A stretch of 64,000 nucleotides of DNA from Trypanosoma brucei. Lineage: Eukaryota. The notes beneath the pieces were generated by a model. That model was not told the DNA's origin. It saw only the letters and a program-made list of their open reading frames with translations, and searched no databases. Positions 3,325-62,530 of the stretch are shown one piece after another. Numbering within the stretch: the stretch's first letter is position 1; every line of letters starts with the position of its first letter. The position numbers and the translations under genes were made by a program. The stretch covers positions 2,848,001 through 2,912,000 of the forward strand of contig CM000207.1 in the NCBI GenBank assembly GCA_000002445.1, in the 5' to 3' direction.

Positions 3325-5256
3325 TTTTTTTTCTTATGCCTACGAAGATCAGCTGTGTGGGCGCAGCGCAGTTGCTTGACAGTGCGGTCTTGGCAAACAA
3401 AAAAAGGATATTTTGGTTTGGCCTATTGGAAGTTGCTGAAGTATGGCTATTGCTGCTGCGACTACCGAGCTAACAGATACACATGATCGCTTTTCTGCTG
3501 TTGCTGACCAAAATAACACAAAGTATCCCACAGTTTTCATGATCTTTCTGTACTGTTCTATTTCCTCCTCTACTATAAATTATACCGGGAAACTATATTA
3601 TTTGTTGTATGTCGAACTTACTGGTTAACACTATGTTTCTTCTTCCGATTATAAACCACAGTTAAAAACATCCACACATTAGCATCTATCCATTTTATAA
3701 TGCCTTGTAGATCACAATCCGTCTTTTTTCTTTGCATCACGTATTTTTTCCTTCTAATCTTTGATGTACAGTAGCTTATTCGGTCTTTTATAGTGTTTTT
3801 TTCATACTTCTTTATCTATAATAATTTGTACTTCTGCTGATAATGTAGCAGGTCCATTAATAATGTACACTGCACTGTTTTTACATAATTTTCTCTCCAC
3901 TTCCTTGCGAATCATGATCCCCATCATCACATTTGTGTTTGCGGATGCAAATTTTCCATTTCCATTTCTAAATCTTCAAACTAATTACAATATAAAAATT
4001 ATCACTTTGTTTCGTTGAGGTTTTCATATGTTCAACTTGAGTAAGTGTTGTATTTAGTGTAGAAAAAACATGTGCAAAATGACAAATGTATGGTCTAAAA
4101 TTATCGCATACGACTGTACATTAAATTATAAGTTTCTTGTCTATTTATATCTATCAGATCTATCTCGTTCATCCGAAATTTTAATTCTATAAATCTTGAA
4201 AATACAGCAGATATTTTACTCCTTAAAATTCAAATTTTATGGCTTACAATCTGTGCTATATGGCGGTTCCTTTGTAGTGGTGCATCCAGCTTCTGAAATT
4301 ATATAACTTTTTTCTTTTTTATTCTTATGCTCGACCTTACGCCAATTTTCTTCACAATCTACCTCATTTTAGGTTGTTTGCACTTCAGAGACTGTGCTTT
4401 TGGATTCCATTAAAGTTTTTTCAACTTTTCTGTCGAATTATTTGCCACGTTAGCACTGTACGATTGAAAGCACTTATATGAAATGTGCGTTCTTCAAATG
4501 TACTTATTTTTTCCTCTTGGCGAGTTTTGAATTAATGTAGTTTTGCTACTATTGCTCCCTGCTTCAATAAAGCTGCTATAATGTTTCACATATATTTTAT
4601 TTTAAGCATCCTTTACCAATATATCTTTTTTCTGTCTACGGTTATCAAATAGTAGTCCTCATTTTAATATCTATCTCTCAATAATATTATATCGTTTGCG
4701 ACAAATGTAGGTGGTTGTTACTATATGTGATGGGGCAGTTTCGACATTACTTTATTCCTATTCGATCACCTCCACTGTCTCCTACTTCTTCTTGGCATTG
4801 TAATCCACCACAATATTGAAAACCGCATTCTACCATCTCTACAGTGGAGTCTATCCACATCTCTGTCTAATACGGAGCGCAACTTCTCCTCCTAATGTAT
4901 CGTTTTCTCCTATGTTGTGCTATTGTGCATCCAGTTGTTTTCTTCTTAGTTTTCTTTCCTTCTTTTTACTCTTATATCGGTTTCTTCTGCAGATGATATA
5001 GGGAATCTATTAGACCTTTAAAATAGATACTGTCACCTCCATCATCTTTTAATTTTGATTTCCATCATTAAGTTTATCTTTTAGATCTGCGCATTACATC
5101 CCTCACCCCTTCTCCATCTCTTTCCTTTAATAACAAACCCCCTTTCTGTATAATACTCACTTTTCAACTGACTCCCTTAGCTCTATTGTTCTCCTTTCAT
5201 TTATTTAAGTTCTTCTACTTGGTCATTCTATTTAGTCCTCACTACAACCTCTGTCA

Positions 5257-5390
5257 TAATATTCGTATATGCACACACTCACAACACTCTTCTATCATCA
5301 TTATTATCATTATTATCATTACTATTATTATTATTGCTGCAACTCATATACATAATATGAACGAAATAAACCTTGTTAGAATAGCACCAA
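5257..5390 (-). repeat. 70-bp repeat region
   Basis: ataatattcgtatatgcacacactcacaacactcttctatcatcattattatcattattatcattactattattattattg motif. Confidence 0.85.
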
Positions 5391-5480
5391 TGTTTCATAC
5401 CTTTTCACCCTACTATTGTACACATTTTTAATATTTCACAAAAAATCAGAATTATTCAAAATTTCATATTTTTATCAATA

Positions 5481-5496
5481 AGTGTTAAAATATATC
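5481..5496 (-). promoter_or_regulatory. VSG 3'UTR 16-mer
   Basis: gtgttaaaatatatca is a perfect reverse-complement match, about 85 nt downstream of the GPI-frame stop at 5578. Confidence 0.8.
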
Positions 5497-5577
5497 ATAG
5501 TATATCAATTTGTAGAAAACTTTCTTGAAACAGTAAATTCTATAATTTTTATAAGATTGGGTAAACATCGTTATAAT

Positions 5578-7157
5578 GCTAAAATGCTACAAAACTCATA
5601 AAAGCAGCAGCATTCACCAGAGAAATTTTCTTAATAACGAGAAAACTGGAATCTTTGAAAGCGTTATTTTCCCATTTGCGTTCTGGAACCTTGGTGCATT
5701 ATTCTTGTAGCTTTCCCTTGCAATTCCCTGTTGTTGTTTCGGTTCCTCCAGTTTGAGATTGTGTCACAGTGACACCTTTTACCTTCGCTTTTTCCGCATC
5801 AAATTGCACTTTTTGCTGCTGTCTTCAGAGTCGTCATAACTGCATTGTTTTTCCTTGTTACACTTGTCTTTGTTAGCGTCTCCAATTGCGTTACAATATT
5901 CCTCCTGTGCCTGGTTGGTGGCGACTGGTTGCTTGCAGCTTTCAGTGCTGACCACAGGTTACACCCGTTTTTTAACTCTTGGATTGCTGCGAGTGTGCTT
6001 TTCTGTATCTCTCCCGGGTAAGTCAAAGTGCTTAATTTCACTTGGGTTTTTGATCCTTCCGCAAGCTTGGGGACCATGGTGCTTAGAATTTTCTCCTTTA
6101 GCTTTTGTGCCTGTGTAGTGGTCGCCGGCTCCACACTGTTGATTAGCGCGGTGGCTATTTCATCTTCTGTTGGTTTGGCTGGAGCTCCTTTTGGTTTATT
6201 TATGACTGCAAGTAGTGCTGCCTTGAGGTTTTCAGTCGCTAGGATGCTATCGAGTACTTCGTCGGCTGTCTCGCCGGAGCTGTTGTGCATGTGCTTTTCT
6301 AGTTGTCCTATTTTGTTGTAAAGTTTTGCTGCGGCTGTTGTCGCCTCTGGTGTTGCCCAAGAATTGCCTAGTGCGTTTAGGGCCGGGGTTTGTGCTGTTG
6401 CGCTTGCTGCCGTGTCGTGCGGTTTAATGGTTATGAAACCTTGGGCTATGTTTACGTCGTCGCCGGCTCCGCCGTTTGCCTTCCATAGCTTTGCTGCGTT
6501 GTCGTTTGCACCTACTAGAAAAATACATGTTTGTTGGGCGTTGCCGCTGTGCAGGTCTGTTTTCGCCGACAATGTTTTGAAGCCTTTGTTGTCCATTACA
6601 CTGGCATCGACTGTTGCTCGTGGTTCCGGTGGCTCTAGTATTTCTGCCGGGCAGCCGTACGCCGTTACAGTCGAGGCTAACGTGGCTGTGCTGTCCCCTT
6701 TTTGAACGATGCACTTGCTCGTGCTTCGGTCTTTAGAAGCCTGTCGGAGAATGTCGATTACCTCTGAAATGTGCCCACTGGTTTTGGCGCCGTTAGTGGC
6801 TGCATTTAATGCTATTGGGGCTAGAGTGGCCAGAGCGGTGGCAGCATCGGTCGAACACCTTGAAGCTCTGGCGCCCGCTGCCGCATAAAGCGTTGAGGTG
6901 TTGCTGTCTGTCGCTGCGGCCGCAGCCAGGTTTGCTTTAGCCGCCGCCTCATTTGCCGCCGATACCTGGTTTATTAGGCTTTGTATCTTTGCTAAAGCGA
7001 CACCTTCGATATCCGTTAAAGTTTTGGCTACTTTGCAAACCTTTTTGACGGGCTCTTCGTCAAAGGCGGGGCCACTGGGCGATACAGGCACTGCCAGCAG
7101 CTTTAGGGCCAGCGCGAGCGCCAAGGTACTTGTTGTCCGGCCCGAATTTCGGGGCAT
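5578..7157 (-). pseudogene. VSG: VSG, probable pseudogene (A-type; frameshift in C-terminal domain)
   Basis: 452-aa ORF 5799..7157 has signal peptide (TSTLALALALKLLAV) and a full N-domain but ends in a non-VSG tail. In a different frame the CTD/GPI end reads ...KWENNAFKDSSFLVIKKISLVNAAAFMSFVAF* with its stop at 5578-5580. Confidence 0.75.
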
Positions 7158-8811
7158 TGCTGTTACGTTAACTGTGCTTCGCTTTCGGTTCGCCTTGCTA
7201 TTGTGATTCTTAGAGGTGTGTCTTCTAGGAGAAAAAATAAATCCGCAGTTGTGTTTATACGGTGACAGTTTCCTGTTTACTCGACCTTTTTATTGCTTTT
7301 GAGTTTTTAGATTCTGTTCTCCCCTGTTAATGTAGCTTTTGCTTTTATTGGCCACCACTCCGCACGGCCAATATCATTTCAACGGCGTAAACATAATGAG
7401 AAGGCAGTAGGAATTCAAGTCTTAATTTTTTTTTGAGAAAATTTCTGTCAATTACCTTTAGTAGAAAAAAACATAACCAAGTTTTTGTCACAGGTATGGA
7501 TGGTGTCCTTTTCCTGCCAATCCCAGTCGCTGTCATGATCATGTCCGGCTTGTTGGTTCAACCCGTTGGTCCTGCTGTTGCTTTATGCGACTTTCAGCGG
7601 CTTCAAGTCTATCCTGTTAGCGCCTCACTTTCATGCACTCATGGACAAATTTTGCCATAAGCCTTCCGTTTACATTCACCCACTACAGTGTGAAATACAT
7701 ATTTACTGCTGTCGTTTTTCTGGACGTTTGTCGTCTCATTTGACTTTTGATTTCTGATATGTGGCTTTTTAGGTGTCATTGTTTCACTACATCTACTATC
7801 CTAGCAGTGAGTTGTTTTTAATAAGCTTCTGGTGACGTTGATGTCTTAAGTCGTTATTTTTTCTTTTTTTCTCTACTTTGTTGTTTTTCGCGCCCTCACG
7901 TTGTGACCTGAAGGTGGTTGGATCGGTCATTCTGTTGCAATATTATCGTTTTTTTCAAACTCAACGATACAGAAACCTGTTTGTATTCCAACCACCGTTC
8001 AGAGCTACTGCCTCAACTCTCTCTACCTGATAAGGTAAGTTTAGTTGCACTCTTTTAAGTCCTTTTACTTTAAGCTCCAAAATCTTACATTTAAGCTGCT
8101 TTTTTACAATTTTACATGGTTGTATCTAGAGAAGAACAAAGATATAATTTAATCTAATACAACTATCAATTCATATAAGTAAATGGAAAACAAAGGATAG
8201 CTGTTTCTACACTATCTTGTGGTGTAAAAGCTTCTTAATGCTTGTTTTATGCATTCTTTCCTTCGTTGTTTGTCTTTCAAATACTTTCTTCGGTTTTCTG
8301 CCTGTGATAAAAGATTTGAGGAAATCGCAAGCTTTATTGTTCGGAACAGCAGTTTTTTTGATTTTAATTCATTTGAGAGACGAACTTTTAAATAAAAATT
8401 CGGCCTTTATCAGATTTGCTCTTTTTCCTAGACCACTGTGTATATATGATAGAGCTTTGATTGGAGACAATGCATACTTCAACGAGGCCTCAGGGCACAT
8501 AGGCAGTGGTGCTTATAGATGTCCTCCGCTTGCACCACATCCTTTTGTGTTTTGTTAGGACTCAATTCGTTCTTTACACGGGACTATTTCTCTCCCTCAT
8601 CGTTCAATCCATTATAAAATTGTGTATAATGATGCACGTAGTCATTTTTATGAAACTGAGTGTCTTTTCTTTCCTTCGCTCATTATCTTCATGCATTTTC
8701 TTTCATAAAATTTTGCTTTTTCTCACACACTCACTCACATACTTCCTTTGCTGACTTTTCCTTTTAACGTTTACTTTGGCATTGCATTTAGTTTGCACAA
8801 ACAACCTCAAC

Positions 8812-12756: not shown

Positions 12757-12865
12757 GGGGAGAAATAACCCTAACCCAAATAACCTTAACCTTGACTCTA
12801 AGCATAACCGGAAGCCGGATAACCCTCTCTAGCCTAACGTCCATAACCTCTCTGCCTCCTTCCTA
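12757..12865 (-). repeat. Degenerate telomere-type hexamer tract (CCCTAA-like on plus strand, TTAGGG-like in VSG sense)
   Basis: aaccctaacccaaataaccttaaccttgactctaagcataaccggaagccggataaccctctctagcctaacgtccataacc shows 6-nt periodicity. It includes 2 perfect CCCTAA units plus decayed ones, and sits about 200 bp downstream of the stop of the intact VSG at 13060. Confidence 0.6.
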
Positions 12866-12984: not shown

Positions 12985-13000
12985 GTGTTAAAATATATAA
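12985..13000 (-). promoter_or_regulatory. VSG 3'UTR 16-mer
   Basis: gtgttaaaatatataa, 1 mismatch, 60 nt below the stop at 13060. Confidence 0.7.
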
Positions 13001-42224: not shown

Positions 42225-43750
42225 CTTTAAACAGAAAAGAAGCAGCAATCAGAGAAAATTTTTTTTTACAAGGAAACTAAAATTTAGGCACATTTACTTA
42301 TGTTGATTATGTTCACCACCTCTTCTTTTCCTAAATGAACAATCTTTTTGTCATCTGTTTTATCAGCGAGACAAGCCTCCATGATTTTGTGCCTTGCACA
42401 CCCGATTGTAGTTGTTGCACCTCCTTCTTTTGCTGCTTGTTTGCCTTCCTCACTCAATGTGCACTTTTTCTTCTCATCTTTTGCTTCGGCGTTCCACTTG
42501 CATGTTTTTTGGCACTCTTTATCTGACTCTTTTTTGTTGCACTCTGTTTCTTTCGAGTCGATGCTTTGTTGTGTTGTTACTGGTTTGTCGGAGCTGCCTA
42601 GAGTCTTTGTGGCATTGGTTGTTTTGGTAATTCCCGTTTGAATACGGCTGCGAGCGCATCGTTTGCGATTTTTTGTTGCTCTGCTGCTCGTGTCGCCGTT
42701 TCTTTGTGGGCGTCGATTGTTTTCATTACGCTTAGGGCGTCAAGCAATTTGTCTGCACACGGTATTGTTCTCACGCATTTGTGAGCTGTTGTGAATGGTG
42801 TCGAGTAATCTACACAAGCTGAGTTAGTTTTGTCGCAGCCGCTGTCACCATCGAGCTTTCCTAGAATGATTTTCATGTCGCTACTGCCGGTTTTCGCCAC
42901 CCCTAGCCTGGCTTGGAATGCCGCGAGGGCCGCTGCAAATAGCGTGTCAGCTTCGTTTGGCTCAGGGTCAGAGCCGCATTCCTTAATAAATTTTGTGTTC
43001 GCCTCCGCCTTGAAATTGTTGTCGTTCATCGCTAGTGAACCTGGATCGGCGCCGATGCATTCGTCTGCGTTGGCGTTGTTGCAGAGGCATGTGATGTCAA
43101 GTTGTAGGCTCGTCCCCGCATTTGCTGCGGTACAGACTGCCGTCTTTGATGTAGTGTCGCCCGTGATTTGGTCGCATTCACCTGTTTGTTTGTTTGGTTG
43201 AAGCGGCGCTGTGCAAAGAGCGGCGTCGAACAGGTCTCTTAGCCGGTTAACGGCTGCTTTTCCATTTGATTGCGGCATTGCTGTCGTTGTGGCGCCGAGC
43301 TATGTCGCTTGAGCGGCCGTTTCGTTGACGTACCCTCTGACATAGTGTTTGAACGCGTTGTCGGTGGGCAGCTGTCGCGTTTTTGCCCAGTCCGTGTTAG
43401 AATTTTTTGTTGCCTCTTTTTGTTGCTCCCACAGTGGCCACTCTTTCTGCCAGTCTATTGTTCCGAGCGATGTGCCCTTTGCCTTCTTGAGAGCATCCAA
43501 GCCCGCGTCTTTTTCTGTTTTGCCAAACAAATTCCGCCACTCGTCTGCAGCTACTGACATATTATAATTCAGAATATCTGTTAGGTCAGTACGTAACTGA
43601 GGTGCCTCGTACGTTACTTTCCTGAGCGCCCTTACTGCTGTATATACACGGCAAAGTGCCAGAAAATCTGCTTGGTTGTCGCCGGCCGCTAATGAAGTAT
43701 GCCTGATAACTTCCAAACGACTGCTGCTATTTGTATGAGAAGAACCTTCA
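42225..43750 (-). pseudogene. VSG: VSG pseudogene (B-type; signal peptide out of frame)
   Basis: ORF 43300..43716 is a B-type N-domain (ADFLALCRVYTAVRAL...) lacking a signal peptide. MKVLLIQIAAVVWKLSGILH* lies in another frame with its ATG at 43748-43750. ORF 42598..43278 is the Cys-rich N-domain remainder. A degenerate GPI segment near 42225-42300 (FSFLVKKNF..) is frameshifted. Confidence 0.7.
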
Positions 43751-43862
43751 TCGTCTTTATGACTACATTCAAAAATGGGAGAATATTTCTTGCGTTGTAA
43801 GTCAGTTTATTGAAATGTCTGATGCTTTTTTTGCCATCTTTCACATGGTTATGTTGCTTCTG

Positions 43863-44760
43863 TCAGCAATTGTCATCCATAATTCGGTCACAGTGGTGAC
43901 AGCGGTGCGCTTTTGCTGCTTGTCTACAACTTCTTAGCTCTAAAAAGATCCCCTTCTTTACACGCATCACCACAAATAGTTCCATACACAAATCCAAATT
44001 TTCTCCAGATACTGCATATGCTTGCAGCTTCCTAAGAGTGTGATTCGCATTAAATTGCTTTCTTTCCCACTCTATATACCAATTAAGGTTGGATACGATC
44101 TTTTTAGAATTTGCCTCCCAGGTTAACTCATGTCCTAGAAAGTGAAGAAACGCAGGTTTTCTGAGCGAAGTTTCGTAAGGAACTGAGAAAAACTGCTCTT
44201 TATAATCCAGACCTATCAGCCCTCCTTGCAAAACGAATCTACTGCTGACATTCTCTTCACGTTCCACACTTCACAACAACAAGGGAATATAAATGCTTTT
44301 TTGGACCACCATTCGTCAGCCACTGCAAGAACTTTATCGAAGGCGGCTTTAAACCTCTTAAATGCCCGAACTCGTGCTATTAAATTACCGCTCCAGAGGT
44401 ATGGCTTCCCTGTGTCGTGAAATTTTAGTAGAGGCGGTAGGACTTTCTCTTCTTCTGTCTTGCTTGTCATCTCAAAAAACCACCGACAACGTTCTTTATG
44501 TTCTTTGTAATCAGAATAAACTATCAAGTCCAACTGAGGTTCATAATACTCAGCTGTCGTCATGAATAGAATCGGAGAAATTTGTTTGTCTTTAACGACA
44601 CCCTCCTCACTAAATTTATCTTCATTATCATCAGTATTTTGTATAAAATATTTACTGCACTCTCATACTTCTCTTTCCATCAGAAACAATAACATAAGAT
44701 CCGTCAACAGTCATTACAATATTATCATCACTTACATTCTGTCTTTCCAAAAACTCCATA
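43863..44760 (-). pseudogene. Non-VSG ORF fragments of unknown identity (frameshifted; about 300 codons in 3 frames)
   Basis: Minus-strand ORFs 44216..44563 (…LPPLLKFHDTGKPYLWSGNLIARVRAFKRFKAAFDKVLAVADEWWSKKAFIFPCCCEVWN…) and 43863..44267 (…FLHFLGHELTWEANSKKIVSNLNWYIEWERKQF…HRCHHCDRIMDDNC) overlap by 52 nt. A further piece upstream, about 44580-44760, reads MGGLYSHVKRLIWVMEFLERQNVSDDNIVMTVDGSYVIVSDGK. Composition is coding-like, unlike other cassette upstream regions. There are no VSG hallmarks and I do not recognise the family. Confidence 0.4.
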
Positions 44761-45417
44761 ACCCATATAAGCCTTTTTACATGACTATACAAACCTCCCA
44801 TAGCAATTGTAATAATTTCAACATGAGCTCACTTAATCGTTAAGAGATATTGAGCTTAAGAACACTAAATATAATTACAGCAGTAGTAGTAACATTTTCA
44901 AGACATCTAATTTTAAGACTTAAATCACCTATAAACTTTGATATTGTTATATAGGAAACAGAGAAAATTGGAGAAGACTATACAAAAAATTCGAAAAAAA
45001 GGAAAGATATCAGTTCCGCAACTGTAGTTTCTTTTCAAAGAAACTGTGTTCACATATACAAATAATGCCTTAGCATTGTTATGATGCAGCTGGATGTGGT
45101 TACTTTTTAAGTGTATACAGATCATCTTTCGCACGAATCCATCTTTTTTCTTTTAGAAGTTAGCATCACTCATACATACTGTTTCGCGCTATGTTTATTC
45201 CGCTTTTCCTTGCATTCCACATAATCCACTCAGTTTGCTATAGAGATTGCAGTAACTACTTGCACACGAAGGTTAAGATATACTAAGAATTTTATTAACT
45301 TTCTCCGATAACTAACCTGACCGTCCAGTTTCGTTAGAAGATACCTATAACAGTAGCTTTAAAAATAATTTATTACCATTGAACCCTTCCACCGTTTTAA
45401 GTGCTTCTATTTCTTTC

Positions 45418-45555
45418 CACTACAATTACTATCATTACTGCTCTCATTATAATATTAAAATAGTCACACTCAAAACATACTATTGCTATCACTATATGAA
45501 TACCCTAATTAATATTCATGATGCAAAAATAACCAAATTAAAATGGCACACATTT
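45418..45555 (-). repeat. 70-bp repeat region
   Basis: ctatcattactgctctcattataatattaaaatagtcacactcaaaacatactattgctatcactat. Confidence 0.8.
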
Positions 45556-55167: not shown

Positions 55168-57990
55168 CTATGTGTCTCGAAACTGTGGTAAATCAGCAGC
55201 CTTTTTCGCCATTTCATTACAAACCTCATTCCGTTTCACGCCACAATGGCCAAACACAAATTGCTGTCGGATACGTATCTTCCTTCTCTGAACTTGAAGC
55301 AGAAGCCTCCATAGTCGTCTTAGAATTGGGTCCGTCACGGCTAGGGGGCATGTCTGCAGTGCTGTTAACATTGACAGCGAGTCAGAGAAGATGGACAACC
55401 TGCTCGGTGTGCTTCTGTATGCCGGAAGCCATTTCAGCAGCCGTTGCAGTCCTATCTCTAATGCTACGCATTCCGCTCTGTAACTGCATGAGAGTTCCCC
55501 TGCTCCGGTCTTGGGTGCACAAATCAGCGTGTTGTTTCTATAGAGCAGGGCAGCTGCCCCGGACTTCTCACCGAGGGACACGGATCCATCAGTACACAAT
55601 TCGTAGTGCTCTCGCCGCGGTGGCTCCTTCCCCCTCCGTGCAAAATGCCGTTCAATCCACTTTTCGGAAGCCTCCCTTTTGACATCGTCAGGGTCATCAG
55701 CGCACACAGGCTTTATCTGCGTGTGAAATATCGGTCGGCAGCTGTGGCGGAGCGTCGATGTCTCTAGTGGGTGCTCGCGTGGCTCAATGCGGAGGTGGGG
55801 GTAGGACCGCATGATGCGGGAATGTAAGACTCTGACTGGGTGTTTGCTGTGGTATACTTCTTCAGCACTGCGCCGTAAACATCCGCCTCGTGACTCACAC
55901 ATCAGCATGAATTTTATGCTGTGCACAAGAGTGGCCGTCTTGAGTGGCAGCAGGTTTGCTTCCAGCAGAGAGTTCTCTTTGCGCGTCCCATGCGGTATGC
56001 CGGCTATGATGCGACTGGCTTTGTGTTGTGCTGCTGCAAGGAGGTCTAGACTTCGTTTTGAAGCGTCCCAGTACCATACCTCAATGCCATACATGGTGTG
56101 TGCCTGTACGAGTGCTAGATAAAAAGCTCTCAGTACTTGTCGTCTTGGCCCCCATGTAGAAGCTGAGATGGATGTTATCTGCAGTAGTCTCAAGTCCATG
56201 TTGCGTCTCGTTTCGGCTGTATGTGTTGCCATCCCCTGCAGACACTGGAATGTTACTCCTAGAAGCTTCGGTGTCCTGTCAGCTCCTATTCTTTCGCCGT
56301 CCAGTTGTAATGTAAGGGGGTGGCGCTCTATACACCCGAAGAGTGTGCACTCTGTTTTCGCTACGCTGATAGACATGAAGTACTCTTTTGACCACTGTAA
56401 CACCACGTTTAGGCCGCATTGCAGTGTGTGGTTGATGGCATCCCTCTCTGTGTGCCTCGCAAGTAGCGTTAGGTCGTCTGCAAAGAATCCGTGCTGCAGC
56501 AACGGCACTTCTGCAAGGCGTTGGCTCAACGAGTTCATGACAATAATGAACATGATTGGGCCAAGGACAGTTCCTTGTGGCACTCCTCGCTCAAATGTTC
56601 TGCTTCTGGAAAGCTTCTCCTTGAATCTCACTCTGCCAGTTCGGTTACTCAGAAATGATACGCACCACTTCACAATGTGGTGTGATACCTTCATTCTGTG
56701 CATTTCCCTCGCAACTTTGTCGTGGTCTACTGTATCGAATGCCTTCTCGTAGTCAACGAATACAGCACCCGTACGATATTGGTGCGTGGGACGGCAGAGG
56801 GCAGCGCGGACGTGCAGCAGTTGTTCGAGCGTTGAGCATCCGGGGCGAAAGCCTGATTGCTGCGGCGTCAGCTGGGACTCAACAGTGTCTCTAATCCTTG
56901 CGGCAATTATGCGTTCCATGACTTTGCAGAGACAGCTCGTGAGCGTCACAGGCCTGTAAGAATCGAGGTCCTCCGCCTTTTTTCCGGCCTTCAGGATGGG
57001 GATGATAACACCAGTCTTCCATGCAGGCGGCACGACTACCGTTCGTAGGCTCTCATTGAATAGCCTCAGAACAACATTCAGCGCTGTTCTGCCGAGATGT
57101 TGCAGTGCCTCGTTGTGTAAGCAATCAGGTCCGGCTGCGGATCCACTCGGTAGCAGTTTGATCGATCTCCGTAGTTCAGCCATCGTGATGGGACTGAACT
57201 CACTCGCTATCGTCTTTATTGGTGCTGGTGGGTGTGTGTCGGGATGCCTTCTTGCTTGAGACGAGTACAGTTTACTGAACCTCTCAGCTTGACGGTAGTC
57301 CGTGATGGCCGTGTTATCAACAAGTACAGCCGGTGTGGTTAGTGGTCGTGGCGCATATACCTTCTTGACAATGTGCCAACTGCAGCGGTCTGACACCGCA
57401 AGTCTGGAGCATAGTGTGCTCCATCTCTTCTTTGTGGTACGGTCCAGGATCTGCTTACGTGTGGCTACCAACTTTTCCCTTCGGTGGGAGGGTCCGCATC
57501 CAGCGATCTCTTCATCGAGTTTCGCGAGCTCAGGTGTCCAATGTGGTGGCGTTGCTCTGCAGCTACGGGGGACGGAGACCTTCGTCGCAATGCGGATGGC
57601 GGAGCTCAATTTCTGTTCCAGGGTGTTGACATTCTTCTCTCTACTAATTTTCCTGCAGAGCTCGTCAACCTTGAGATGGAAATTCCTCCAGTTAGCTTTT
57701 AGCCATGCGTACATGAGCTTTCGAAGCCGCGGGCAACTCAGTGCATCTGTGTCGTCTCCAACGATAACGTCGAAAAATATGTGATGGTGATCGCTATCGG
57801 GAGAATACAGCGATGTCCACGTGTACACTGTGCGATTCCTTGACAGTGTCACATCAGGGGTGGACTCCCCGTGGTGGCGCGCGTACCTGGTGCACTCACC
57901 AGTGTTGCAGACCAGAAACTGGTTGTCAATGCACCACTGTGTGAGGGTTTCACCCTTTGTATTTGGTGGGCTCGCGCGATCCCATGCCAA
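55168..57990 (-). CDS. ingi reverse transcriptase / RNase H portion (940-aa frame)
   Basis: RT motifs PDCLHNEALQH.., FRPGCST.., GVPQGTVLGPIMF, FADDLTLL, followed by an RNase H-like region. It overlaps the endonuclease frame by 142 nt in a different frame, implying a frameshift versus the canonical single ingi ORF. Confidence 0.85.
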   Translation of the reverse strand: MAWDRASPPNTKGETLTQWCIDNQFLVCNTGECTRYARHHGESTPDVTLSRNRTVYTWTSLYSPDSDHHHIFFDVIVGDDTDALSCPRLRKLMYAWLKANWRNFHLKVDELCRKISREKNVNTLEQKLSSAIRIATKVSVPRSCRATPPHWTPELAKLDEEIAGCGPSHRREKLVATRKQILDRTTKKRWSTLCSRLAVSDRCSWHIVKKVYAPRPLTTPAVLVDNTAITDYRQAERFSKLYSSQARRHPDTHPPAPIKTIASEFSPITMAELRRSIKLLPSGSAAGPDCLHNEALQHLGRTALNVVLRLFNESLRTVVVPPAWKTGVIIPILKAGKKAEDLDSYRPVTLTSCLCKVMERIIAARIRDTVESQLTPQQSGFRPGCSTLEQLLHVRAALCRPTHQYRTGAVFVDYEKAFDTVDHDKVAREMHRMKVSHHIVKWCVSFLSNRTGRVRFKEKLSRSRTFERGVPQGTVLGPIMFIIVMNSLSQRLAEVPLLQHGFFADDLTLLARHTERDAINHTLQCGLNVVLQWSKEYFMSISVAKTECTLFGCIERHPLTLQLDGERIGADRTPKLLGVTFQCLQGMATHTAETRRNMDLRLLQITSISASTWGPRRQVLRAFYLALVQAHTMYGIEVWYWDASKRSLDLLAAAQHKASRIIAGIPHGTRKENSLLEANLLPLKTATLVHSIKFMLMCESRGGCLRRSAEEVYHSKHPVRVLHSRIMRSYPHLRIEPREHPLETSTLRHSCRPIFHTQIKPVCADDPDDVKREASEKWIERHFARRGKEPPRREHYELCTDGSVSLGEKSGAAALLYRNNTLICAPKTGAGELSCSYRAECVALEIGLQRLLKWLPAYRSTPSRLSIFSDSLSMLTALQTCPLAVTDPILRRLWRLLLQVQRRKIRIRQQFVFGHCGVKRNEVCNEMAKKAADLPQFRDT

Positions 57991-58664
57991 CTCGCGTGTG
58001 CGTTAGCGTCTGCACCGATGAGCTTGGCACCGTCAGTTGTCAGAAGCGTATCTAGGTCAGTTGCCGTGAAGGTGTGTTTTGGTGGGATGTATGCCGACGT
58101 GACAGTCAGCGCCGTTCCACGTGCAAGGTGAATTGTTGCATGCACTTGTTCAATGCGACCAACAACGGCCATACCGGTCTCGACTGGCAGGTCCTCCCTC
58201 ACTAGTATTGATACACCACCTCCTTTGCAGTTACGAGCTATTCCGTGATGTTGGTAGCCAGAAACGCTAAAGCAAGCCGCCTCTCCAGGCGTCATCCTTG
58301 TCTCGCTCAACAGACAAAAGGCGATCCGCTCATCAACAAGGGTTTTGTAGAGTGCTAATCTCTTTCCTTGAGATAGCCCGGCGTAGTTCCACTGCATCCC
58401 GCGCAACGACGGGCCGGGATTCTCTTCCACATCACCGGACAGCAGCATCTTAGTGCGGATGATACTGCTGATGGCACGCTGGCACGTGCCCAGGGACCGA
58501 CAAATGAAGAACGGTGTCCCAGCAAGACGCTGCTGATCCCTGTGCTGTATGATGCCGTAGCCGGAGCACAGCAGTGTTCCCCATGAAAGGAATGCTTCTG
58601 ACTCTTGGCTTCCCCCGATGATACGGGGTACTGGACCCTGGCACCACGTTGAAGTGGCCGGCAT
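57849..58664 (-). CDS. ingi N-terminal segment with 2A peptide plus AP-endonuclease domain
   Basis: …RTKMLLSGDVEENPGPSLRGMQWNYAGLSQGKRLALYK…VSILVREDLPVE…: the 2A-like D(V/I)ExNPGP motif followed by an APE-like fold. The ORF-track start lies inside the Pr77 region and is probably not the true start. Confidence 0.8.
   Translation of the reverse strand: MPATSTWCQGPVPRIIGGSQESEAFLSWGTLLCSGYGIIQHRDQQRLAGTPFFICRSLGTCQRAISSIIRTKMLLSGDVEENPGPSLRGMQWNYAGLSQGKRLALYKTLVDERIAFCLLSETRMTPGEAACFSVSGYQHHGIARNCKGGGVSILVREDLPVETGMAVVGRIEQVHATIHLARGTALTVTSAYIPPKHTFTATDLDTLLTTDGAKLIGADANAHASWHGIARAHQIQRVKPSHSGALTTSFWSATLVSAPGTRATTGSPPLM
58410..58433 (-). other. 2A-like self-processing peptide motif DVEENPGP
   Basis: Residues 78-85 of ORF 57849..58664. 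A motif of this type is known from trypanosomatid L1Tc/ingi elements. Confidence 0.7.
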
Positions 58665-58672
58665 CGCCAGGG

Positions 58673-59090
58673 AGCAGCAGAAGCAACGCTCCGGCAGCAG
58701 GCGAAATCAAAGCCTTGCACTACAAAAGAAAGCAAAGATCAACCCCAAAATATAGACATCGACACTCGCGCGGAAAAAGGAGTAGGAGATGAGTGCAAGC
58801 ACTCATTCAAGTTGTGAGTAACAGGCGACAAGAAAAAATGAGTAAAAGATCCGTATTTCGCCAAAAAAGCAGAGAAGGCAAAAGAAGGTGAGAAAATGCC
58901 CTCAGATAAGTGTACAAAACATGGCACTGATAAGGCAAACTGTAAAAAAAATGAGGGATTGGAAGTAGGAGCAAAATATCCATGTAGATGTATTGAAGAC
59001 AAGTGCAAATACTCTGATTTTCTAGTAAATAAGCAATTTAATCTCATTGTTTATTCTTTAATACGTTTAGTTAAATTAAAAAATTATTAA
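58673..59090 (+). pseudogene. VSG: VSG 3' fragment on the plus strand, truncated at the ingi 5' end
   Basis: ORF 58896..59090 reads …KYPCRCIEDKCKYSDFLVNKQFNLIVYSLIRLVKLKNY* (CTD plus GPI-like tail). Upstream, 58673-58830 reads CTD-like K/C-rich sequence in another frame. It is followed by a plus-orientation 16-mer-like motif and a 70-bp repeat. Confidence 0.65.
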
Positions 59091-59162
59091 CATTTAAAGA
59101 TTATTGCTCAATTTTATAAATATCTATTTTCTTGAGAAAATTTGGTAACATTAAAGAAAATT

Positions 59163-59178
59163 TGATATATTATAAAAC
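59163..59178 (+). promoter_or_regulatory. VSG 3'UTR 16-mer (degenerate, plus orientation)
   Basis: tgatatattataaaac versus TGATATATTTTAACAC, about 70 nt after the stop at 59090. Confidence 0.55.
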
Positions 59179-59317
59179 TTTTGTAAAACATTTCAAAATA
59201 TGAACAGTTAGAAATGTGATATAAAAGTTGCCTATGTAATCAAATTAGTATTGTAATAAGCTACGAAAAATAGGTGCTCTTTTCAAATTTTTTTTGTTTT
59301 TTATTCTTATTTTGTGA

Positions 59318-59415
59318 ATATTAGTCATGATCATGATAATAATAATAATAATGATAAAATAATGTTGTAAGTGTGTGTATACGAATAATATAATGGTGAA
59401 ATTGGTAATGCACCA
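59318..59415 (+). repeat. 70-bp repeat region, plus (canonical) orientation
   Basis: atgatcatgataataataataataatgataaaataatgttgtaagtgtgtgtatacgaataatataatggtgaaattggtaatg is the reverse complement of the motif seen in the minus-strand cassettes. Confidence 0.85.
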
Positions 59416-60757
59416 TTTATTCACTTTCCAAAGGCAGTCGGTAGCTTGGGAGGAGAAAGCGAAATTTATTGTGAAAAATCTTACTTAGTATAAAGAGTTG
59501 AAAAGCAAGCAATTTAACACTGGATATTTGGAGGATACTCTATATTACGCTAAACGATGGAAATTGAACTTTTAATATGACAGTTTTTTGCATAGTGGCC
59601 GAAGAATACAAATTTGTTCCTGCTTCATAAAGTGTTGCGCGATTTATGGCGCGCTGCCGGAAAGACAATACTTGTGCCGACAACAACACATAAATGAATC
59701 TGCGATGACGAGGCACAACCGGCGTGCCAAAAAGCCAGTAACTGTGGATAACAAGAACAGCCCACGCACAACCTTGCACAAGCCAGCCAAAAAGACAAAC
59801 CGAGCAAACAGAAACAGTCTTCAACACAACAACACAGCTGTGAAACGACATTGAACCAACAAAACCGGAGACATCAAGAATGAAGAAGCTCCATCGGCAA
59901 ATGTTCGACACTAGATACTTTCTTCAGAAACAGAGAGACACAGAACTTAACCAAACGGTCTTTACTCCGAAGTCAAAAGATCAGACACGCTCAAAAAAAT
60001 TTCAAAGGCAACATAATAAACATAGCAAACTCCCTTGCGGTTTAACCTAAAATAACAGAGTAGGCAAGCAACACAGGTCAAAAAAACGCGGAGTTCGCAA
60101 CTCCATGTTGAATTTATACTTACACACGAGCTAAACGGCTGTGCGAACTCGAAAAAGCCTTCAATCACAAAGGCGGCGTTCTCAATCCAATATTCAATGC
60201 CAACCTGACGAACGCACCTTATTCCTAACTAAAAACGAGAATGGAGGCGCCAGCAAAACATAAAGGAACAAGCAACAAAAAAGACAGCAGTAAAGGAATG
60301 GTCGAAAGAAGTCTCCCAGAGGCACAAAAAGAACCCCAGCCGTAACTCTACCGAAGACTATGAACCGTCAAAGGAAGCAGCATGTGACATCCTTACAAAT
60401 GTAGAAAAAAGCAGCATACACCAACAGCCAAAAGTACTCACAGAGCAACCTAGATCTTACAAACAGTAGTTACCTGCAGCATACAAGATTTTAATGGTAC
60501 ATTCTTCAAAAGCAATAAGGGACAAGCCAGCAATATTCTACAAACTAAGCGCTCAGCAGCGCGGAAACACCTACTGTAATTCAGACTTTTTTCAAACCAA
60601 ACATTGAAACATTCATCAAAAACAACAACGCTAAGCTCATTCTCTTTTAGGAAATTTTGAGATAGAGTCAGAAAAATGATATATTTGAGTATGCCAACAC
60701 GGTGGCTTTTTAGAATCTCAGTGAAAGTGGCATTGCTTTTAATTACCAGCCGGGCGT

Positions 60758-62200
60758 TTGCCAACATCGCTAAAGATGACAGCGTCAGGGAGATGGGCGC
60801 TCTGTTGGCTGATTGAACTAGGCAACAAGCGGGAAACACTAGCCATTCAGCCCCCAACTCAAAACACGGATTTGGACGATATCCTAGAGTTTAATACGAC
60901 CGTATCAGACCAAGCTTGGCTGGACCTGTTCCGAGACAAAACAAACAAGGAGACAATACGCGCATTCCCAGACGACGAGCTCGGGCAACACCCGGACTGG
61001 AAAGAAAGATGGAACAAATGGCAGGCAGCTGCTTTAAACGTAATCAAGCCGGACGGGCAACAAGCTGCACTGGCAAAGCACAAGCTAAAAGATATAACCA
61101 CAGAGAAGGAGGCGGCAATCCGCCCACCTGTCCAGCGCCACGCGGCCGAGGCAACTGCAACCAACGAACACATGCAAAAAGCAGCGCCGACAGAAAATCT
61201 GCTAAACGACAGCGCCTTACAACAAAAGCTAAACACGGCGCTCTACGGCGACAAAACCGGGAGCGACGCTCCTTCCGACGAAAGCAAACTTTTCAAGGGG
61301 GCAGCCACCGCCGCCGGGCCAAAATCAGCGTGCGAAGGCAGCACGCAAAACAACAAAGCCGTAACAGTCACGGCAGCTTTGCTATGTATATGCACCAGAC
61401 AGAACGGCGCAGGCAGCAACGAAGGCAGCGCGTGTGAGTACGTCACAGGGACCACCCAGACGTGGCCAGGAAGCAGTAACTATCCAGCCGCGGCAGCAAT
61501 ATCTGAAGCAGTCAAACTATGTGACTTACAGACAAAACACCATATTACGGCGGATACACTCGCAACGAAGCTACTGCACATCACAAAACTAATCATGCGC
61601 GTAAACGGAGCGGCGACCTTTGGTAAAACAATCAACGGCCAATGCACGGGCAGCCAAGACGGAGGCATGTGCGTAAAATACACAGACCTACGGACCAGCG
61701 GAAGTAAAACATAAACAGACATACCTTGGCTCGGTCAGCTACAGAAACTAGTGACAGTACTACGAAAGCACGAAAAAGCAGTACAGGTTCGCCAACAAGC
61801 ATCAGACGCAATAAGGAAAAAACGGCTACAAGCTCAATCACTGATCTACAGCGAATCACCACAAGCTCGAGAACAAATGCAACCCAAAAACTGCATACCA
61901 CAAAAAAAAACACCAAAGAATGTGAACAGCACAAGAACAACAAAACTGCATGCACAAATGCCAACTGCAAATGGTAAGAAAAAATGAAAAAGAGGAATGC
62001 AAACCTAAAGATGAAGAAGGACAGTCAAACACAGCAGAAGATGGAGTTTCAGGAGCAGCTGCAAAAGAGAAATGCAAAGGGAAACCCCAAGGCGAGTGCA
62101 AATCGCCGGATTGCAAATGGGAAGGTGCAACTTGAAAAGATTTTAGTTCCCTCACCAATAAGAAATTGGCTCTGATGGCTGCTGTATTTATTAGCTTAGT
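60758..62200 (+). pseudogene. VSG: VSG pseudogene on the plus strand (B-type N-domain; CTD frameshifts; degenerate GPI end)
   Basis: ORF 60758..61714 (318 aa) is a B-type N-domain (…LDDILEFNTTVSDQAWLDLFRDK…) with a poor signal peptide. CTD pieces 61726..61977 (KECEQHKNNKTACTNANCKW) and 61950..62135 (CKGKPQGECKSPDCKWEGAT) are in 2 further frames. A tail KDFSSLTNKKLALMAAVFISLVEL.. has no clean stop. Confidence 0.75.
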
Positions 62201-62424: not shown

Positions 62425-62530
62425 TGCTTTATGAATGATAGTATAAATAATAATAATATGACTGTGATGTAAGTGTGTACATACGAATATCATAATAAGA
62501 GCAGTGGTAATAATTGAATGAAAGAACGAA
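62425..62530 (+). repeat. 70-bp repeat region, plus orientation
   Basis: gaatgatagtataaataataataatatgactgtgatgtaagtgtgtacatacgaatatcataataagagcagtggtaataattgaatg contains the GTGTGTA.ATACGAATAT.ATAATAAGAGCAGT core. Confidence 0.9.

Follow-up and report, generated by a model that had tools for sequence, protein, structure and literature searches.

A 64,000-nucleotide stretch of Trypanosoma brucei DNA (referred to here as the window) carries on its minus strand, at 43924-44846, a remnant whose matching family is expression site-associated gene 3 (ESAG3). The remnant is colinear with ESAG3 and bears disabling lesions. It lies between a 70-bp repeat and a VSG pseudogene, and the same layout is present at a second locus in another genome. 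The remnant is almost certainly a non-functional passenger, an ESAG3-family pseudogene that was probably duplicated with its VSG while the subtelomeric array was being built. An ESAG3 pseudogene within a VSG array is an already known kind of element and is ordinary; published work describes most subtelomeric ESAG3 copies as pseudogenes.

Identity of the remnant

Three open reading frames occupy this part of the minus strand, at 43863..44267 (134 aa), 44216..44563 (115 aa) and 44652..44801 (49 aa), and their GC content of ~0.37-0.43 compares with 0.23-0.34 in the flanking 70-bp/AT-rich spacer upstream. An earlier note on this DNA had reported the three frames, and both their existence and the quoted translations are confirmed. 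It had also stated that they could not be assigned to an ESAG. When the three translations were stitched together and searched against 5.8 billion proteins, however, the single match was the ESAG3 cluster, with an E value of 1.7e-80 and 91% query coverage, and the remnant is an ESAG3 pseudogene. Most of the other cluster members listed bear the name expression site-associated gene 3 (ESAG3), and their sources are T. b. brucei and T. b. gambiense. The representative, Q26748 (P0001), has a misleading name, "variable surface glycoprotein", and several of the old GenBank/UniProt entries for ESAG3 (Q26748 / AAA63784.1, AAA63783.1 and AAA57271.1) are likewise entered as 'variable surface glycoprotein' or 'variant-specific antigen'. 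An exact-protein search of public assemblies with the 115-aa ORF and with the ESAG3 protein CAQ57304.1 (P0002) gave no match.

Comparison of ESAG3 proteins with the window by tblastn gave E values of ~1e-56 to 1e-60, with residues 63-368 running from 44846 to 43927 in four alternating frames. A purpose-written, frameshift-aware protein-to-DNA alignment of ESAG3 with the window DNA likewise has residues 63-368 colinear with 44846→43927 on the minus strand, and 175 of 303 residues are identical (58%). This alignment places four frameshifts in the remnant, near 44674, 44651, 44301 and 44002, as well as two in-frame stop codons. The 3' end of the remnant is the native ESAG3 C-terminus (…AKKL) followed by the stop codon TAG at 43926-43924. 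The stretch originally singled out, 43863-44760, is therefore replaced by the span of the homology, 43924-44846.

The extent of the pseudogene (43924..44846, residues 63-368 plus the native stop) is set by the frameshift-aware alignment, tblastn and the database match, and all of its segments are on the minus strand. Segment A (44676..44846) corresponds to ESAG3 residues 63-119, contains the first in-frame stop (codon ending at 44829) and includes a damaged DXXD motif (TVDGSY); the first frame of the earlier note (MGGLYSH…) is ESAG3 from M78 within this segment. Segment B (44653..44673) corresponds to residues 120-126 (EKYESAV) and is read in a third frame between the frameshifts at ~44674 and ~44651. 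Segment C (44303..44650, residues 128-243) has a changed glycine loop (G216->N) and retains W242, and it includes the second frame (MTTAEYYEPQLD…), which is ESAG3 from M157. Segment D (44004..44300, residues ~245-342) contains the other stop codon, ending at 44271, together with the substitution Q245->K and a retained H297; the third frame begins here at about residue 262. Segment E (43927..44001, residues 344-368) is the true C-terminus, carries the change W345->F, and lies in a frame that had not been listed previously. It reads KFGFVYGTICGDACKEGDLFRAKKL and then TAG, and corresponds to the ESAG3 C-terminus KWEFRYERICGDAFKENDLFKAKKL-stop. The tail quoted earlier for the third frame, "HRCHHCDRIMDDNC" (…RSCRQAAKAHRCHHCDRIMDDNC), needs correction in that its last ~60 nt are out-of-frame read-through past the frameshift at ~44002, and the true frame leads to …ICGDACKEGDLFRAKKL-stop. 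As read from this alignment, the three ORFs are consecutive parts of one decayed ESAG3 gene.

ESAG3 residues 1-62, a part that spans the signal peptide and H54, were undetected in the window. A permissive tblastn search gave just one match for this region (44916-44836, E = 0.36 in a 1.8-kb search space), where LKLDVLKMLLLLL*LYLVFLSSISLND aligns with ESAG3 MKFGISRALIVLLLSHLVCVRAVFLQD; the interval 44836..44916 on the minus strand is thus a possible, though unproven, relic of the signal peptide. The full-length ESAG3 pseudogene from T. b. gambiense that is described below has no DNA similarity to the window upstream of window position 44821. On these alignments the copy may be either 5'-truncated near residue 63 or, if the relic is real, shortened by an internal deletion of ~35 codons. 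The earlier observation that the remnant has no signal peptide holds, since the ESAG3 copy is 5'-truncated or decayed and its first ~62 codons are undetected.

Placement within the ESAG3 family

ESAG3 is family Fam53 of the cell-surface phylome, and copies of it outside expression sites are also called ESAG3-like or GRESAG3. The remnant has significant, colinear similarity to ESAG3 over most of the protein length and is in this sense a member of ESAG3/Fam53. With intact ESAG3 as the query, a word-indexed homology search brought back its own cluster alone, and an exhaustive HMMER search reached the wider family, with 48 representatives at E ≤ 0.001. After frame correction, the translated remnant is 55-58% identical to 13 ESAG3 proteins of bloodstream expression sites (BES; E ~1e-115 to 1e-123), whereas its identity to the full-length distant representatives (P0017-P0024) is only 25-29%. 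Because of this difference in pairwise identity, the remnant would represent a divergent lineage within ESAG3 sensu stricto and fall outside the conserved "GRESAG3" lineage. An identity of just 58% to BES ESAG3 is too low for a copy made recently from an expression-site gene.

Active site and loss of function

[quoted passage not shown] The same preprint already reports the cryo-EM structure of the protein and its fold assignment. The GT-A fold includes the DXXD motif (D110/D113), G215-G216, W242, E244/Q245 and H297; the substitutions D110N and W242A abolish activity, and the protein assembles into an octadecameric ring via H54 and W345 (bioRxiv 10.64898/2026.01.27.701950). The active-site and interface positions listed in the preprint are conserved among the members of the ESAG3 cluster.

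The remnant retains D110, G215, W242 and H297. Tyrosine replaces D113 of the metal-binding DXXD motif, G216, Q245 and W345 are changed as given above, and E244 is lost at a frameshift. H54, at the ring interface, falls within the missing N-terminal part. Neither an uninterrupted ORF of ~368 codons with an N-terminal signal peptide nor an intact GT-A active site is present. An active product is implausible because the frameshifts and stops are combined with a missing 5' end and with active-site substitutions. Judged from its sequence, the remnant is a dead ESAG3 copy that cannot encode the O-glucosyltransferase. We infer that it yields no protein product and that its present sequence is under no selection; its function would be at most that of a patch of recombination homology.

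The VSG cassette and its surroundings

Along the minus strand, a 70-bp repeat is followed by a unique AT-rich spacer of ~585 bp, then by the ESAG3 pseudogene (44846-43924) and, after a further 172 bp, by a VSG pseudogene (43751-42284). The 70-bp repeat is represented by the core of a single unit at 45431..45455 (minus strand), which matches ATATTATAATRAGAGCAGTAATRAT exactly and forms the upstream boundary of the VSG cassette. The core pattern occurs at 4 sites in the window compared with 0 expected. Tandem Repeats Finder, run on the window, did not list the 70-bp repeat here because only one unit is present, and it was the pattern search that found the core.

The class-B VSG pseudogene (42284..43751, minus strand) lies directly downstream, 172 bp past the ESAG3 stop, and is spread over several frames. 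It begins with an ATG at 43751 followed by the signal peptide MKVLLIQIAAVVWKLSGILH, as read from the sequence. Two of its ORFs, 43300-43716 and 42598-43278, match the Pfam profile VSG_B over its positions 15-122 and 172-349, respectively, with E values of 3.5e-16 and 3.9e-16, and a further ORF at 42284-42457 has a weak match to the VSG C-terminal domain Trypan_glycop_C. The VSG 3'-UTR 16-mer is absent downstream of this pseudogene, as it is downstream of the VSG pseudogene at the T. b. gambiense locus. Whereas these neighbouring ORFs match VSG_B, Pfam finds no VSG domain in the ORFs or stitched translation of the remnant, which bears out the earlier description of the remnant as non-VSG.

The region upstream of this VSG had also been said to differ from that of the other cassettes, and blastn agrees: comparison of 43750-45420 with the whole window gave no second copy, the matches being just 41 bp at 59477-59517 and a 55-bp flank of a 70-bp repeat. 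Within this silent VSG cassette, the remnant sits in what is termed the "co-transposed region". It is not an expression-site-associated gene in the strict sense, as it lies downstream of a single 70-bp unit in a window of many VSG cassettes. The same window also holds several 70-bp cores and an ingi element, and no long telomere tract is present in it.

A second, shorter scrap of ESAG3 occurs on the plus strand at 59392-59572, where it is flanked by the ingi element and by a VSG on the plus strand. This scrap corresponds to residues 287-349 and has one frameshift and one stop; its DNA similarity to the main pseudogene is limited to a 41-bp stretch at 83%. The ingi-type non-LTR retrotransposon (55168-58664, minus strand) encodes, in an unusually intact 940-aa ORF, an endonuclease domain, a reverse transcriptase domain (RVT_1, E 2.4e-44) and an RNase H domain, and has an overlapping 271-aa ORF upstream. 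An apparent strand switch lies at ~58700-60750. Between 1 and 54 kb, VSG cassettes and their 70-bp cores lie on the minus strand, and beyond the switch the plus strand carries a VSG_B ORF at 60758-61714 and a 70-bp core at 62487-62511. Elsewhere in the window, a degenerate telomere-like tract is found at 12765-12850 on the minus strand (…GGTTATGG…GGGTTATCC…GGTTAAGGTTATTTGGGTTAGGGTTATTT), ~130-220 bp downstream of a VSG 3'-UTR 16-mer (12985-13000). This tract may be the relic of a formerly telomeric VSG. A 12-mer of two TTAGGG units with one mismatch is not significant by itself, as at least one match occurred in 16 of 100 shuffles.

The same layout in T. b. gambiense

One of the proteins reached in the HMMER search is an ESAG3-like fragment (P0016) encoded in FN554968.1 of T. 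b. gambiense DAL972, and it led to a second locus (L001, where the cassette spans 4170-8400) with 70-bp repeats at ~4170-4640, an ESAG3 pseudogene at 5501-6595 and a VSG pseudogene from 6797. The order is that of the window: 70-bp repeats, ESAG3 pseudogene, a spacer of ~200 bp and VSG pseudogene. The ESAG3 copy at this locus is full length (residues 1-368), with 2 frameshifts and 2 stops, and keeps both DGSD and GGG. The VSG that follows it differs from the VSG in the window. Pfam made no VSG call on its ORFs, and no tblastx match to the window reached E<=1e-4; a signal peptide and a C-terminal tail resembling a GPI signal (…CRDSTILLNKKICVIAAALESMVVL) are the features by which the gene is read as a putative VSG pseudogene. 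The two loci together suggest a recurrent class of VSG cassettes that bear an ESAG3 pseudogene.

The best blastn stretch between the two ESAG3 pseudogenes is 82% identical over 300 bp, and nucleotide identity over all aligned codons is ~65%. From a protein-guided codon alignment in which synonymous sites are near saturation, dN/dS is ~0.22 overall and 0.30 in the best-conserved third. Taken at face value, these values would mean that much of the divergence between the two accrued under constraint, and that both pseudogenes descend from distinct, once-functional ESAG3-like paralogues and not from one long-dead copy. A dN/dS of ~0.2-0.3 is in keeping with an origin in a divergent paralogue that was once functional, more than with long neutral decay. 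Neither this ratio nor the 58% identity challenges membership in the ESAG3 family.

Origin of the pseudogene and alternative explanations

The ESAG3 copy would probably have been duplicated jointly with its VSG through the processes of segmental duplication and gene conversion by which subtelomeric arrays are built. Following duplication the copy would have decayed, and what is present now would be a passive passenger. The earlier note had raised the possibility of a pseudogene from a subtelomeric family that was carried in with the VSG, and that suggestion stands; its other suggestion, something undescribed, gives way to the ESAG3 match. That note had also remarked that a strong match to a known family such as ESAG3 would make the finding routine, and for this reason the finding is routine.

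Alternatively, the pseudogene could be kept for recombination, either as a block of homology that helps to move the VSG into expression sites bearing ESAG3 or as a donor for mosaic ESAG3 genes. In published work the breakpoints of expression-site recombination fall at ESAG3 loci, and in some BESs the 70-bp repeats are followed on their 3' side by an ESAG3 pseudogene (PMC2567434); the order of 70-bp repeat, ESAG3 pseudogene and VSG is, moreover, found again in another genome. Recurrence of the layout is equally explained by common ancestry of the cassettes, however, and no sequence feature demands a role in recombination. At 65% nucleotide identity between the compared pseudogenes, with a longest well-matched stretch of 300 bp at 82%, the element would be a poor substrate, and the downstream VSG is a pseudogene too. 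Such a role is improbable. The more elaborate form of the idea is that an ESAG3 pseudogene between a 70-bp repeat and a VSG marks a distinct class of cassette, which steers VSG conversion to expression sites that have an ESAG3 pseudogene 3' of their 70-bp repeats or serves as a silent mosaic archive for the VSG O-glucosyltransferase. It seems equally doubtful.

Another possibility is that the remnant is a functional ESAG3-like (GRESAG3) gene whose frameshifts are errors of assembly or sequencing. About 50 intact genes related to ESAG3 are present in the subtelomeric and internal regions of T. brucei (bioRxiv 10.64898/2026.01.27.701950), and the dN/dS against another copy is below 1. Sequencing errors could yield frameshifts alone, but not the stops, the missing 5' end or D113Y. 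The lesions comprise four separate frameshifts and two stop codons of the substitution type, and neither a start codon nor a signal peptide is detected. Within the active site, D113 of the DXXD motif is tyrosine, G216 is asparagine, Q245 is lysine and E244 is lost at a frameshift, and the neighbouring VSG is likewise a multi-frame pseudogene. A working gene at this position is very improbable. That the frames are chance ORFs, as the earlier note had allowed, or belong to an undescribed non-ESAG family is refuted by the E value of the ESAG3 match and its colinear alignment over 306 residues, and the failure of Pfam to find anything meaningful in the three ORFs or the stitched protein is explained by the lack of an ESAG3 model in Pfam, where even intact ESAG3 receives only a sub-threshold match to the PLOD glycosyltransferase domain.

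Recognition of the remnant as a dead ESAG3 copy removes an apparent unknown from the window and otherwise matters little. Now that O-glucosylation of class-B VSGs has been ascribed to ESAG3 in a preprint, lists of dead and live ESAG3-like copies may gain use, for example in tracing the history of the family, and the copy in the window comes from a lineage that is 58% identical to the expression-site enzyme.

Comparison with known systems

The closest counterparts of the remnant are the BES ESAG3 proteins (CAQ57304.1, P0002; Q26748, P0001). The remnant is colinear with these over residues 63-368 at 55-58% identity, shares their C-terminus and retains D110, W242 and H297. It differs from them in lying in a multi-cassette VSG array and not in an expression site, in having none of the 62 N-terminal codons that can be detected, and in carrying 4 frameshifts, 2 stops and the changes D113->Y, G216->N, Q245->K and W345->F. 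The glycosyltransferase domain of human LH3/PLOD3 (GT-A, PF25342) is a distant fold relative of the ESAG3 family, and this relationship is a remote one. The ESAG3 and LH3 folds superimpose with an RMSD of 2.4 A over 147 C-alpha pairs (bioRxiv 10.64898/2026.01.27.701950). In Pfam the match of intact ESAG3 to PF25342 has 20 bits (E 4e-4; gathering threshold 27 bits), and the translation of the remnant has no match to this domain. The copy of the PDB that was searched with intact ESAG3 held no ESAG3 structure and gave only weak matches to LH3 chains (E 0.012).

The idea of a silent archive, doubtful as it is here, likens the ESAG3 pseudogenes to the VSG pseudogenes that contribute to mosaics. With respect to layout, the known parallel is in two expression sites of Lister 427, BES7 and BES15, for each of which an ESAG3 pseudogene on the 3' side of the 70-bp repeat is described (Hertz-Fowler et al. 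2008; PMC2567434). The ESAG3 pseudogenes of BES7 and BES15 are elements of the same type as the remnant and have the same placement with respect to 70-bp repeat and VSG. BES7 and BES15 are telomeric expression sites, whereas the remnant in the window belongs to a cassette of a silent array.
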